A DNA stretch of 52,418 nucleotides, taken from a virus (taxonomy: Duplodnaviria; Heunggongvirae; Uroviricota; Caudoviricetes). The notes beneath the pieces are model-generated. The model did no database searches and was not told the origin of the DNA. It saw only the letters and a program-made list of their open reading frames with translations. The position numbers were made by a program, and so were the translations under genes. Location of the stretch: the IMG/VR virus record IMGVR_UViG_3300032579_000006; one strand, 5' to 3'. Shown piece after piece: positions 43,692 to 48,062 of this stretch (its first letter is position 1; every line of letters begins with the position of its first letter).

Positions 43692-44684
43692 ATGAACTAT
43701 AAAGAACACCTCCTGCATTTTTTCCTTCAAGGTAAAATAAGCTTAAGTCAATACGACTATAAGTTCATGTCGAATCTTCAACAGATGATTCACGCGAACC
43801 ATAGGATTACGACTAATCAGGTTGAACTGTTCGATAAACTGGTCAGTAAATATCGTAAACAGTTGATTAAGACCGAATTTAATGTAGATACACTGAAGTC
43901 GTTGCCATGGAAAACTTCAGTTGTACAAAGCACCGAAGAGTATACCAGCGCCAAAGTCAGTTTGGTAGGCAATGAATTAACTATTAAGCTACCCTTCAAC
44001 AAAACGTTCATTTCAGAATTCAGAGATATAAAGTACAACACATTCGAATGGAACAAAGATCGAAAAGTGTACACTGCACCATTCAGCACGACTGCATTGC
44101 ATGTTGCTGCTACTAAGTTACAGAAATATTTTTCTGTAGTTAGGTTTTGTGATACCTTACAAGCCATACTAGATCAACTTAAGCAGTATGAGGCCGCCAC
44201 AGTTTGGGACCCGACTTTGGTAAAAGTGGGGAATTCATATTTTATTGCAGCGTGCAATCCGATCATAGCTGATGTACTCTCTGATGTGGAATTAAATACT
44301 GAACCTAAAACTCTGTATACGCTATCTAATGCGGGTGTTAAGGTTGATCCTGCCTTGCTTACAGAACCAAAATTGAAGTTTGCACATGAATATTCTACGC
44401 AAGTGGACTTATGTGATCTTACGTCGCTCATATCTTGGTTACAAGAGTTAGATTGTAAAAATGTAATTTTGGGTAGAGGAATCACATTAAATAAGCAGGT
44501 ATATAATGAGTTGACACTCAAGTTAAATGAGGCAAACATCTACTATAGGTCCTTGCAAGGTGCAACCTTAACCAAAGCAGACGTGCTAATTCAACCAACC
44601 TCAACATTAACGATAGATCGCGGCTTTAGAGATTTAGGTAAAATAGTAACCCTATCAAATTCAAATCCAGTAGTAGTTAAATAA
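43692..44684 (+). CDS. Hypothetical protein (330 aa)
   Basis: Long ORF behind TTGCTT-16-CATAAT. Confidence 0.8.
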   Translation: MNYKEHLLHFFLQGKISLSQYDYKFMSNLQQMIHANHRITTNQVELFDKLVSKYRKQLIKTEFNVDTLKSLPWKTSVVQSTEEYTSAKVSLVGNELTIKLPFNKTFISEFRDIKYNTFEWNKDRKVYTAPFSTTALHVAATKLQKYFSVVRFCDTLQAILDQLKQYEAATVWDPTLVKVGNSYFIAACNPIIADVLSDVELNTEPKTLYTLSNAGVKVDPALLTEPKLKFAHEYSTQVDLCDLTSLISWLQELDCKNVILGRGITLNKQVYNELTLKLNEANIYYRSLQGATLTKADVLIQPTSTLTIDRGFRDLGKIVTLSNSNPVVVK

Positions 44685-44737
44685 CGAAATCTCATTATCA
44701 ACAGGCTATGGAGAAGGAAAGACCCAAGGAATAAACA

Positions 44738-45763
44738 TTGAAAACAGCAACAATAGAAATTAAGGACGAAGTAAACGTTAAAATTTTAGGACTTGAGTTA
44801 GATGTAAGGCGCGCTCTCATGAAAAAATTTGAGTACGAGAAGCCCGGTGCCAGATATCAACCAGCAGTTCGATTGGGTAGATGGAATGGTAAGATCAGCT
44901 ATTTTTCTTTAGCAGGGAGTACCTATCTAAATCTACTGGATGAAATCATTCCGATACTAATCGATTACGGCTATGACATAGTACTAGACGACAAGAGAAA
45001 AAATCACTTAGACCTAAAGTTTGACCTGATAAACGAGAATACTTTTGCTAACATATGCTGGCCCGCCGGACATGAACGTGAAGGTCAACCTATAATTCTG
45101 CGTGATTATCAAGTGGAAATCGTCAATAACTTTTTAGCCAATCCACAGTCACTTCAAGAAATAGCAACAGGCGCTGGCAAGACATTAATGACAGCCGCAT
45201 TGTCTAAAAGTATTGAGCCATATGGTCGATCTATCGTAGTTGTTCCCAACAAGTCGTTGGTAGTACAAACCGAAGCAGATTACAAAAATCTTCAACTTGA
45301 GGTAGGCGTGTACTTTGGTGATCGAAAGGATTACGGTAAAACACATACCATCTGTACATGGCAATCACTGAACAATTTGCTCAAGGTTAAAGCTGAACAA
45401 GATCCTAACAAGGATCCTGATATGGAAGACTTTTTCTTTGATGATGTTGTTTGTGTCATGGTTGATGAATGTTTTCACGGAGAATCAGTGGTGCTAACCC
45501 CGGTTGGATATGTACCCATCAAGGACATTAAAGCCGGAGATAAAGTAATCAATTATTGTGAACAGTCCGGAACCTTCAAGGAAGATACAGTGGTAAAACA
45601 ACAGCACAATCTTACTGTGTCGTCCACTGAAAAAATGTATGAGATGGAATTTGATAACGGACGTGTAATTAGGGTTACTGGAAATCATCAATTTCTAACA
45701 AATCTAGGCTGGTGCCGGGCTGACGAACTTACTGAAAATCACGAAATAGTAAATAAAACATAA
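44738..45763 (+). CDS. uvsW: UvsW-like SF2 helicase N-terminal half fused to split-intein N fragment
   Basis: TTG start; LRDYQ, ATGAGKT, VVVPNKSL, TWQSL, VMVDE; then intein CFHGES...VTGNHQF...RADEL. Confidence 0.92.
   Translation: MKTATIEIKDEVNVKILGLELDVRRALMKKFEYEKPGARYQPAVRLGRWNGKISYFSLAGSTYLNLLDEIIPILIDYGYDIVLDDKRKNHLDLKFDLINENTFANICWPAGHEREGQPIILRDYQVEIVNNFLANPQSLQEIATGAGKTLMTAALSKSIEPYGRSIVVVPNKSLVVQTEADYKNLQLEVGVYFGDRKDYGKTHTICTWQSLNNLLKVKAEQDPNKDPDMEDFFFDDVVCVMVDECFHGESVVLTPVGYVPIKDIKAGDKVINYCEQSGTFKEDTVVKQQHNLTVSSTEKMYEMEFDNGRVIRVTGNHQFLTNLGWCRADELTENHEIVNKT
45470..45760 (+). mobile_element. Split intein N-fragment (97 aa)
   Basis: Cys1 codon at 45470 directly after DE; block A CFHGESVVLTP.GYVPIKDI..GD.V; block B TGNH; stop at 45761-63. 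Confidence 0.92.
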
Positions 45764-45790
45764 ATACATATGGCTAAGGCAGGAGTATTC

Positions 45791-46711
45791 ATGAAAATTA
45801 CATATGAACAATGGAAAGATCGGTTAAACAAGCGACTAGCAGAACATAACCAACAGGTAAGGGTCGTTACTTTTGGAAAATCAACACTAGAATTATCAAC
45901 CGGCGAGATATTAATACAGCCCGAGTTTAATAATTTTAAAAAGAGGGTAATGAATTCCAAGACTGATCTTTGGGTGAAGAATATGGATTTGCTTCTATCC
46001 GGATTAATATCTGATCGGGAAGTCAAGGCTAAGCTTGCTGCAATTGGTGGCGAAGCCGTTCATAAATTACATCCTGAACTTAGTAGTCGCAATTTAAATA
46101 CAGGTGTGCCGTGGAATAAAGGGAAAACAGGACTACAAACTTCTTGGGCGAAGGGTTTGACTAAACAAACCGACAGTCGGGTTGCTGCTAGAGTAAATAG
46201 CGGGGAAGCAAACGGTATGTATGGTGTAAAAATGTCTGACCAGGATAAAAAATTCCGATCGGATATAATGAAGGATAAAATTTTATATGGAGACTTTACC
46301 CCAAATTCCAACAATAGAAACACGCACTGGGAAGCAACGTTTAACAGAAAGAAATATAGATCGAGTTGGGAAGCGTTGTTTCAGTATATGTATCAGGATG
46401 CAGCGTATGAAACATTGAGATTAGAATACATTATCAACGGTAATCGAAAAATATACATAGTTGATTTTGTTGATTATAAAACCAAACAGGTAGTAGAAGT
46501 GAAGCCGACGGAGTTATGCCGAGGTAAGATATTTGACGCAAAAATGGTTGCCCTTAAAGAGTGGGCAGATCAAAATGGGTTTAGTGTCATTGTCGCAACA
46601 CGGGAATGGCTATTGAATAATAGCTGCCCTTCCGACCTCTCTGGATTTGATGAAAAAACCGCAACAAAGATAAGGAAGTTATATGAAGCTAATAAGAAAA
46701 ACCGAAATTGA
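45791..46711 (+). mobile_element. Free-standing endonuclease (NUMOD3-like repeats + TnsA-N-like PD-(D/E)xK domain) inside the fractured uvsW
   Basis: PWNKGKTG, SGEANGMYG; YRSSWE...YIVDF...VEVKP; AGGAG SD before ATG 45791; TAAATA at 45761-66. Confidence 0.8.
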
Positions 46712-46787
46712 TAAACCTGACGAAGTGTTCAATCTCCACATTGAAAATGATCATAATTACATAGTTGACGGTGCAGTAGTATCCAAC
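46683..46787 (+). mobile_element. Split intein C-fragment (35 aa)
   Basis: Block F VFNLHIENDHNY, block G VVSN, +1 Cys codon at 46788-90. Confidence 0.92.
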
Positions 46788-47519
46788 TGTCACATGGCAA
46801 AAGCTGATGTTCTCAAGCAAATGCTTACTGGGGTATTCGCTGATGTTCCTATTCGCTGGGGATTAACCGGTACCATACCTAAAGCCGAAATGGATCGCGC
46901 TTCGATTCTAGTATCTCTTGGGCCAGTCATCGGGAAGTTAGCAGCAAGTGAGCTACAAGATCGAGGTGTTCTTGCAAGTTGTCACGTTAACATAGTGCAG
47001 CTTAAAGATACTTCGGAGTTTACAAACTATCAAAGCGAGTTAAAGTTTCTACTAGAGGACGGCCATCGTTTAGACAAAATCGCTGATCTTGTACGAGCCG
47101 TCAATAAAACAGGCAACACATTGGTTTTGGTTGATAGAGTAAATGCAGGTAAAGAACTAGTCAGCAGACTACAAAATTCAGTGTTTGTTAATGGTGGAAC
47201 AAAACTAACAGAACGCAAAGAAGAATACGATGAGGTTGCGATCAGTGATGATAAGATAATTGTAGCTACATATGGTGTTGCGGCTGTGGGCATCAACATT
47301 CCTCGAATCTTTAATTTGGTTCTCATCGAACCAGGCAAATCATTTGTACGAGTTATACAGAGCATTGGTCGTGGCATAAGAAAAGCAGAAGACAAAGACC
47401 ACGTGCAGATTTGGGACGTTACTAGTACGTGTAAGTTTGCAAAGAGGCATTTAACCCAGCGTAAGGCTTTTTATAAAGAGGCTAAATATCCCTTTACTAT
47501 AGAGAAACTGGATTACTAA
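46683..47519 (+). CDS. uvsW: Split-intein C fragment fused to the UvsW helicase C-terminal half
   Basis: MKLIRK...VFNLHIENDHNYIVDGAVVSN, then CHMAKA, GLTGT, TYGVAAVGINIP, QSIGRGIR, QIWDV. Confidence 0.92.
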   Translation: MKLIRKTEIDKPDEVFNLHIENDHNYIVDGAVVSNCHMAKADVLKQMLTGVFADVPIRWGLTGTIPKAEMDRASILVSLGPVIGKLAASELQDRGVLASCHVNIVQLKDTSEFTNYQSELKFLLEDGHRLDKIADLVRAVNKTGNTLVLVDRVNAGKELVSRLQNSVFVNGGTKLTERKEEYDEVAISDDKIIVATYGVAAVGINIPRIFNLVLIEPGKSFVRVIQSIGRGIRKAEDKDHVQIWDVTSTCKFAKRHLTQRKAFYKEAKYPFTIEKLDY

Positions 47520-47558
47520 AATGTTGACTTTTACACACATTGTTGCTAGAATAACACT

Positions 47559-48062
47559 ATGAGAATTTTATCACTGGACACCAACGAGGCATATAATCTA
47601 GAACATCTACCGGAAGAAATTGATGATTTGCGATTTGCAATATTAGACAACTCTACTCCCACAAACGTAGACTATCATTTTATTCCTCTTATTTTTCTAG
47701 AATCATTTAATTCACCGGCACTGGTTTTAAAAATTGGTGAGAGAACAATCAAGATGCCGGTCGACTGGCAAGTCTTGATAGGTGAACAAGAACACGGTGA
47801 CCTAGAGACTCTACCCTTATCAAGCTTGAATGATCGTGGATTTCATGCATTTCAATTTAATCCGTTGACTTCTCATTCCCCGACATTTTTACCAATTGAA
47901 ATTGTTGATATCTATACAGACGTGACATGGTATGCACCGAGATTACGTAATGGACAATTTTTAGCAGTACCAATCGATGATGGACCTAAACCAAGGTGTG
48001 TTTACTTTGTCAAGGAAATCAGCAGGAACTGTGAGACTGTAGACTATAGCCAAGCATTTTAA
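47559..48062 (+). CDS. Conserved-type phage protein, possibly degenerate Hint fold
   Basis: Own promoter TTGACT-17-TAGAAT; FIPLIFLESF, MPVDWQVLIG, WYAPRL motifs. Confidence 0.75.
   Translation: MRILSLDTNEAYNLEHLPEEIDDLRFAILDNSTPTNVDYHFIPLIFLESFNSPALVLKIGERTIKMPVDWQVLIGEQEHGDLETLPLSSLNDRGFHAFQFNPLTSHSPTFLPIEIVDIYTDVTWYAPRLRNGQFLAVPIDDGPKPRCVYFVKEISRNCETVDYSQAF

Follow-up and report, generated by a model that had tools for sequence, protein, structure and literature searches.

A fractured uvsW-like helicase gene of a jumbo phage with a predicted split intein and a PD-(D/E)xK homing-endonuclease-like gene in motif II

The fractured genes described by Dassa et al. 2009 (PMC2677866), which include gp41-1, gp41-8, NrdJ-1, IMPDH-1, NrdA-2 and others, encode an enzyme in two pieces that carry the halves of a split intein and may harbor an endonuclease gene between them. 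The locus described here lies at positions 44738-47519 of a 52,418-nucleotide stretch of DNA (the window) from a virus of the Caudoviricetes, IMG/VR record IMGVR_UViG_3300032579_000006. The source record is 258,859 bp long, is estimated to be 73% complete and represents a jumbo phage. In this locus the gene for a UvsW-like helicase of superfamily 2 (SF2) is interrupted in motif II, the DExH box, by an amino-terminal intein half (IntN), a PD-(D/E)xK endonuclease-like gene and a carboxy-terminal intein half (IntC). On the evidence of the sequences, we consider it highly likely that these form a mobile cassette within a fractured uvsW-like gene, for which protein trans-splicing and homing are predicted.

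The intein halves of the window, at 97 and 35 amino acids, fall within the ranges reported by Dassa et al. 2009 (88-105 for IntN and 33-54 for IntC). A conserved element or hairpin upstream of the endonuclease gene, and the existence of alleles that lack the endonuclease, are likewise found in both. An earlier note on the window had pointed to fractured phage genes with an intervening endonuclease as a described class, and an endonuclease-like gene is indeed found between the halves (cf. PMC2677866). The differences concern the components. A UvsW-type SF2 helicase is not among the eight host enzyme types of that set. The endonucleases there are of the GIY-YIG or Vsr-like (EDxHD) type, whereas the window has a canonical E...D...ExK motif, although this is a trait of the examples and not of the arrangement. 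The intein itself is only remotely like NrdJ-1 (E-value 0.004) and gp41-1 (E-value 0.34).

Cultured phages with a homologous cassette at the same DE/CH site (where the slash marks the point of insertion) are Salmonella phage S16 (NC_020416), STP4-a, SEA1, CF-SP2 and Proteus phage PM2. In S16, gp114 ends with MMNDE/C and a 97-residue IntN, gp114.1 is homologous to the middle gene of the window, and gp115 provides an IntC that ends in ALAHN/CHLAT. The S16 IntN is 59%, the IntC 49% and the endonuclease 34-37% identical to their counterparts in the window. In contrast, S16 is a 160-kb T-even phage with a true T4-type uvsW, the exteins of which are only 26-29% identical to those of the jumbo-phage helicase, and its IntC has a penultimate His (AHN). 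The pieces of the S16 group are annotated in GenBank as 'DNA helicase' or 'uvsW_1/uvsW_2', or as 'hypothetical protein'. The earlier note had put the pair forward as a candidate new orthogonal split intein, a suggestion that needs qualifying, as the pair is not confined to this phage: many metagenomic phages have the same intein allele at this site, and so do the GenBank genomes of S16 and the phages related to it.

The DnaE split inteins (Npu, Ssp) share with the window the canonical split into about 100 and about 35 residues, Cys1 and Cys+1, and an IntC with DHN(F/Y)...(A/S)N that lacks the penultimate His (alignment to 4kl6). They differ in that the host protein is DnaE, the halves are found in separate loci and there is no intervening endonuclease gene. 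The similarity is also weak (IntN, E-value 0.13 or higher; IntC, for which the DnaE inteins provide the best alignment, a non-significant 0.24-0.59), placing the window intein outside the DnaE family. The proposal that the locus mirrors cyanobacterial DnaE split inteins was thus right in its layout but not in its sequence, where the IntN lies nearer to the DnaB mini-inteins. These are its nearest solved relatives (Npu 4o1r, E-value 1.8e-6; with Ssp 6frg/1mi8, 1.8e-6 to 1e-4), and are also class-1 inteins within a P-loop helicase. However, they are contiguous (engineered mini-inteins), belong to the replicative helicase DnaB and occupy another insertion site.

Our literature search returned no description of a split intein in UvsW or of the S16-group pieces as a split intein, with InBase lying outside its scope. 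The terms 'intein' and 'UvsW' co-occurred only in unrelated contexts, and a further search, on naturally split inteins in metagenomes, gave no result. The arrangement is already known; an endonuclease of this type and an insertion at this helicase site seem not to have been reported before.

Split intein halves in a UvsW-like helicase

The locus encompasses three genes on one strand, and its features are as follows.

44738..45469, plus strand: N-extein of the UvsW-like SF2 helicase, with a UvsW_N-like region, Walker A GAGKT and the DE of motif II at its end; ResIII and T4 UvsW matches
45470..45763, plus strand: IntN, 97 amino acids and stop codon; TIGR01445 match, Cys1, block B T314-G-N-H317
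45759..45793, plus strand: conserved element before the endonuclease gene, as judged by conservation in related cassettes
45770..46711, plus strand: free-standing homing-endonuclease-like gene; phrog_22417 and phrog_15427 matches, PD-(D/E)xK motif E201, D232, E243-V-K245
46683..46787, plus strand: IntC, 35 amino acids; TIGR01443 match, block F DHNY, terminal Asn35, penultimate Ser
46788..47519, plus strand: C-extein, 243 amino acids and stop codon; Cys+1-His of motif II first, then the Helicase_C domain

The open reading frame (ORF) list and translation give ORF1 (44738-45763) as a 341-residue protein with a TTG start that is consistent with the N-termini of its homologues. Residues 1-244 form the N-extein, which ends in ...VVCVMVDE, and residues 245-341 form the IntN, which begins with Cys245 (codon TGT at 45470), has block B at T314-H317 and is closed by a TAA stop at 45761-45763. 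ORF3 (46683-47519) encodes 278 residues, the first 35 of which are the IntC with the C-terminal sequence DHNYIVDGAVVSN. The Cys+1 codon then follows at 46788, and after it HMAK. The earlier note had assigned both pieces in this way, with a TGNH-containing IntN after ...VMVDE and an IntC ahead of CHMAK, and translation agrees with it to the residue.

The middle ORF (313 residues from its first ATG) is in the same frame as ORF1, with one TAA and two codons between them. Its last 29 nucleotides are shared with ORF3, which is read in a different frame and has a ribosome-binding site of its own, TAAGGAAG, within the 3'-terminal part of the endonuclease gene. ORF1 and ORF3 are found 920 nucleotides apart on one strand and in their original order, and their joined exteins are collinear with uninterrupted homologues, as is the case for a fractured gene. 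Since no terminator-like site was found between the three genes, they are most likely co-transcribed.

On sequence criteria the host protein is a UvsW-like SF2 helicase for which T4 UvsW is the closest solved protein. In Pfam, the N-extein matches ResIII (52.6 bits) and the C-extein Helicase_C (32.2 bits); UvsW_N scores 20.9 bits in the N-extein, under its cut-off of 25.3, and is recorded for close homologues. The best solved match of both exteins is T4 UvsW (2oca/1rif), with E-values of 3.4e-7 for the N-extein and 2.6e-15 for the C-extein (2oca), residue 1 of the C-extein aligning with UvsW residue 234 (2oca). As the identity to S16 UvsW is only 26%, 'UvsW-like' is the safe name. All of the helicase motifs are kept in the two extein halves, and the uvsW-like gene is present as a single copy in the 258,859-bp record.

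When joined in silico, the exteins give a protein of 487 residues that aligns over its full length with uninterrupted helicases and is gapless at the junction, VVCVMVDE/CHMAKADVLK. Its identity is 59% to the helicase of Sinorhizobium phage Phosso, 55% to that of Agrobacterium phage Atu_ph07 and 50% to that of Pseudomonas phage PA5oct. In this alignment motif II reads DE(C/A)H and is divided by the junction directly after its E, and the uninterrupted helicase of Atu_ph07 has DECH natively. The register is in keeping with the earlier proposal that splicing would rebuild the DE-CH of motif II.

The IntN is recognized by the NCBIfam model TIGR01445 (intein_Nterm) at 40.5 bits, against a cut-off of 24.5, with its first position exactly at Cys245, and also by Pfam Hint-family models. 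The IntC is recognized by TIGR01443 (intein_Cterm) at 21.6 bits, against a cut-off of 15.6, over ORF3 residues 14-36. The residues associated with splicing are strongly conserved: 36 homologues show no change in Cys1 or in the block B Thr, Asn and His, T.NH is found in 130 of 145 IntN representatives, and the terminal Asn and Cys+1 are invariant across 14 sequences. The ratio of nonsynonymous to synonymous substitution (dN/dS), measured against the nearest relative of the cassette (L007), is 0.18 for IntN, 0 for IntC and 0.15 for the middle gene, and all three coding parts of the cassette are under purifying selection.

Structure prediction of the complex, with IntN given as residues 238-341 and IntC as residues 1-44, produced a score of 0.70 compared with 0.00 for the best control. 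At least 91% of the contacts were common to the runs, and the predicted local distance difference test (pLDDT) of the partner was at least 71. Of 80 solved complexes, 58 attain the mark of 0.70, compared with 2 of 110 mismatched pairs. Because split-intein complexes have already been solved, the prediction conveys a likeness to these and is no proof of binding. The halves thus combine the features of a class-1 split intein, namely a block A Cys, a block B TxxH, a terminal Asn with Cys+1, and separate coding of two parts with a predicted joint HINT fold. This is a real split intein, very probably a functional one, associated with a homing-endonuclease gene in motif II, and the helicase halves are probably re-joined after translation.

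The middle gene and the element before it

The middle gene most likely starts at its second ATG (45791), which is preceded by AGGAG and corresponds to the start of its homologues. Sequence and profile searches gave no match in the PDB. Among the PHROGs, the product matches phrog_22417, of unknown function (6.9e-38), and phrog_15427, annotated as 'endonuclease' (5.9e-24). Ten homologues from related cassettes share as invariant residues E201 (in SWEA), D232 (in YIVDF) and E243-V-K245. An AlphaFold2 model (mean pLDDT 77) has an N-terminal domain predicted with confidence, then a flexible stretch, and at the C-terminus a PD-(D/E)xK nuclease domain, where the motif residues sit on the alpha-beta-beta-beta-alpha-beta core that is typical of such nucleases.

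The fold was assigned from VIA-align and the sequence motif together. With residues 184-289 of the model, VIA-align retrieved TnsA (Z 7.5, root-mean-square deviation 6.1, 123 residues aligned), followed by VRR-NUC (Z 5.9), Vsr (1cw0; Z 5.7), NGO0050 (Z 5.6), I-Bth0305I (3r3p; Z 5.5) and Hjc (Z 4.9), matches that belong throughout to one kind of fold. Foldseek found no match to the model in the PDB at an E-value of 0.001 or below. The gene is therefore described as PD-(D/E)xK homing-endonuclease-like, with a nuclease activity that is predicted from its motif and model.

The closest described homing endonucleases are I-Bth0305I (EDxHD, Vsr-like) and, as a putative relative, I-Ssp6803I (PD-(D/E)xK); the points in common are the restriction-endonuclease-like fold and a modular build with the nuclease at the C-terminus and a presumed DNA-binding part at the N-terminus. 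EDxHD denotes the His-based motif set of the Vsr-like family (PMC3239194). The window protein differs from I-Bth0305I in its motif, E201...D232...E243-x-K245, and has no significant sequence match to solved proteins. An EDxHD type was considered for the middle gene and rejected, as the inclusion of a Lys in the motif places the gene outside that set. No GIY-YIG match was found in Pfam.

The endonuclease gene is preceded by a conserved element, which consists of CATAAATAC, about 17 nucleotides that contain AGGAG, and GTATTCATG, at 45759..45793. It was compared in ten cassettes with a full middle gene (the window, L005, L007, L009, L011, L012, L014, L018, L021 and L063). CATAAATAC is present in all ten, about 20 nucleotides before the start and irrespective of whether the DNA is coding there, as it overlaps either the end of the IntN coding region or the stop codon, depending on the cassette. 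Its exact complement, GTATTTATG, lies over the start codon in eight of the ten, and across the cassettes this arm can be written as GTATT(T/C)ATG. The two arms could form a hairpin of 9 bp over the likely start codon at 45791, for which 8 of the 9 pairs are present in the window.

The element may act as a promoter, as a hairpin that hides the start codon, or as both, and in this it resembles the hairpins reported ahead of endonuclease genes by Dassa et al. 2009 (PMC2677866). Its fold energy is no better than that of shuffled sequences (z -0.6), the motif is not enriched within the window, and exact matches to the T4 late promoter are fewer than expected by chance, so that either role is deduced from conservation alone. 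The arms show neither variation nor covariation among the cassettes, and the pairing is to be read accordingly as a proposal. Salmonella phage S16 lacks the CATAAATAC...GTATTTATG element.

States of the insertion site and mobility of the cassette

A megablast search of the whole locus against cultured phages gave no match, and all relatives came from protein-level searches only. In a word-based search, at least 50 metagenomic clusters had N-halves of about 338 residues with an IntN that is 65-85% identical. When 1.84 billion representatives were searched exhaustively with HMMER, 1,459 proteins matched with an E-value of 0.001 or below, 170 of them at 1e-10 or below. The IntN is found at the very C-terminus in 95 of the best 150 representatives, and xDE precedes most.

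The site itself was surveyed by tblastn in 82 loci, made up of the best 80 of more than 600 IMG/VR matches and two further loci, so that the following are counts and not frequencies. The site is uninterrupted in 68 loci, and in 11 the split intein is accompanied by a complete middle gene. The intein halves are kept, with the middle gene reduced to a remnant, in two more (L008, L015), and a single locus (L024) has a contiguous mini-intein without a stop (...SITG-MKLIKK...) in an ORF of 625 residues. Contiguous mini-inteins of about 130-145 residues were also found at the same DE/CH site in P0063, P0089 and others, including more divergent helicases (135-145 residues). Empty, contiguous and endonuclease-decayed alleles therefore exist, and the split intein persists after the endonuclease has decayed. 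No longer protein with an in-frame endonuclease domain inside the motif II intein was found, which is weak evidence; the searches gave only an N-half that has a second, LAGLIDADG-bearing intein in its Walker A motif.

The residue that follows the DE of motif II differs cleanly between these states. Close relatives with an empty site have DE-V-H in 68 of 68 alleles, and intein-bearing alleles have DE-C-H in 13 of 13. Such a confinement of Cys to the intein-bearing alleles would be expected of a +1 nucleophile that is required only when splicing takes place.

Comparison of the window with L007 gives a nucleotide identity of 80-96% across 45470-46787, against 60-72% in the flanking helicase and neighbor genes. 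At the fourfold-degenerate sites of identical residues, the identity is 76% for IntN and 64% for both the middle gene and IntC, as opposed to 30-31% for the exteins. The S16 comparison set out above (IntN 59%, exteins 26-29%) runs in the same direction. Because the similarity of the cassettes lies far above that of the exteins, synonymous sites included, the cassette has been exchanged between helicase lineages. The sequences thus indicate its lateral transfer, in the pattern that homing into the conserved sequence of motif II would produce.

Other inteins were encountered in the course of these searches. Some UvsW-like N-halves have, beside the motif II split intein, a second intein in cis within Walker A (GAGK/C...HN/T); among the metagenomic relatives this is a mini-intein in P0016 and P0021 and includes a LAGLIDADG domain in P0054. 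In Yersinia phage phiR1-RT (NC_019909; L090 1396-4245) two genes, g166 and g168, encode the pieces of the large terminase, and the intervening g167 is homologous to the endonuclease gene of the window. Here g166 ends in ...IYIDE/C and about 36 further residues, and g168 begins with about 107 residues that end in ...VESHN/CAFIP. This is an atypical split, with a short IntN and a long IntC, located at the Walker-B 'DE' of another ATPase and associated with the same PD-(D/E)xK endonuclease family. Similar matches were found at the terminase genes of many T-even-like coliphages.

Within the source record but outside the window, the gene for the T4-like portal protein (gp20) contains a contiguous intein with an HNH endonuclease domain, at about 133.6-136.8 kb on the minus strand (L089:1-2847; Portal_T4 1.2e-94, Intein_splicing 36.8 bits, HNH_3). 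With this and the split intein of the helicase, the phage has at least two different inteins. The genes that flank the helicase in the window, 43692-44684 (330 residues) and 47559-48062 (167 residues), belong to no Pfam family and are syntenic with the neighbors of uninterrupted helicases in Phosso, Atu_ph07 and metagenomic relatives.

Proposed mechanism, rival explanations and significance

In the mechanism that we favor, the cassette would have been inserted between the Glu of the helicase motif II (DExH) and the residue that follows. The three genes would be co-transcribed and the two helicase halves translated separately, after which the 97-residue IntN and the 35-residue IntC would associate into a class-1 HINT fold. 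Protein trans-splicing via Cys1, the Thr and His of block B, the terminal Asn and Cys+1 would then yield a 487-residue helicase with a DECH motif II. The endonuclease, for its part, is predicted to cut intein-free alleles (...GTNGAYGAA/GTNCAYATGGC...) in co-infecting relatives, and the cleavage would lead to the whole cassette being copied into the empty allele.

Several observations weigh against this reading. The penultimate residue of the intein is Ser instead of the common His. Within the family this position is variable (S, A, K or H), and the efficient DnaE split inteins likewise lack a penultimate His, the absence of which is no defining feature of class-1 inteins. The middle gene has no Pfam or NCBIfam match in sequence and profile searches, and the structural match scores of its nuclease domain are middling (Z 5.5-7.5). 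As the record is only about 73% complete, a second and intact helicase gene could also exist.

The last of these points bears on the possibility that the helicase gene was inactivated by a selfish insertion and is in decay, leaving the phage without UvsW or dependent on another helicase, a copy of which could lie in the unseen part of the record. The visible decay of endonuclease genes in some relatives (L008 and L015) may also be quoted in its favor. However, in these relatives the decay has left the intein halves and the exteins intact. The extein halves of the window keep all of their motifs and are 50-59% identical to uninterrupted homologues over the full length, and the arrangement of three genes recurs in cultured phages and in at least 95 clusters (50% identity). 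The dN/dS values are low, none near 1 was seen in the intein halves, and the exteins of close relatives showed no frameshift or stop. We regard such an inactivation as very unlikely. Somewhat less improbable, but still distinctly unlikely, is that IntN and IntC hold the helicase pieces together as a non-covalent heterodimer with no peptide ligation. The complex prediction supports an association of the halves and is silent on the chemistry, and functional fractured genes free of inteins are known, for example nrdA of Aeh1 (PMC2677866). Yet all of the splicing residues are strictly conserved, and Cys+1, found in every one of the 13 intein-bearing alleles and in 0 of the 68 empty ones, is not required for mere association. 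An unspliced HINT domain of about 132 residues would, moreover, stay wedged in motif II between the catalytic Glu and His.

Joining of the halves by a self-splicing intron, by stop-codon read-through or by ribosomal bypass, instead of by protein splicing, is the least probable of these explanations, with very little to be said for it beyond the position of the endonuclease ORF in the frame of ORF1, one TAA and two codons away. The earlier note had named RNA splicing or read-through as an outcome that would overturn its claim. No Rfam intron family was detected in 44600-47700 even at an E-value of 1, and on this ground a group I intron with a homing-endonuclease gene was considered and rejected. 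ORF3 is in another frame and overlaps the endonuclease gene by 29 nucleotides, the difference in frame ruling out simple read-through, and the flanks of the break encode recognizable intein halves, which an intron would not need.

Building on protein trans-splicing and homing as the favored reading, a more speculative proposal, which we put forward tentatively and think unlikely in its combined form, is that the cassette is a timing switch. The assembly of active UvsW would be tied to late expression and to redox-sensitive Cys-Cys trans-splicing, and would delay the helicase that shuts off origin-dependent replication. The endonuclease would, in addition, found an unrecognized canonical PD-(D/E)xK homing lineage that serves the 'DE/C' Walker-B split inteins of at least two ATPases, UvsW and the large terminase of the phiR1-RT type. 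The basis for such a switch may lie in CATAAATAC...GTATTTATG, which resembles a T4 late promoter, with a possible hairpin over the endonuclease start, and in the separate translation of the C-half.

The locus belongs to a widespread family of natural split inteins with a canonical split site, with halves of 97 and 35 residues, and Cys1 and Cys+1. Its sequence is far from those of Npu DnaE, gp41-1 and NrdJ-1, making the intein a reasonable candidate for an orthogonal ligation tool. The low similarity makes it plausible that the intein is orthogonal to those of Npu and gp41-1. The endonuclease suggests a canonical PD-(D/E)xK homing lineage of which few enzymes have been characterized. As the split-intein family is also present in easily grown Salmonella phages of the S16 group, these could serve as a laboratory system for trans-splicing, for homing and for the cost that the element imposes. 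Finally, one insertion site, where a clean Val/Cys switch at +1 tracks the presence of the intein, preserves all of the stages proposed by the 'gene-breaking' model, from the empty site and the contiguous mini-intein to the split intein with an intact and then with a decayed endonuclease gene.

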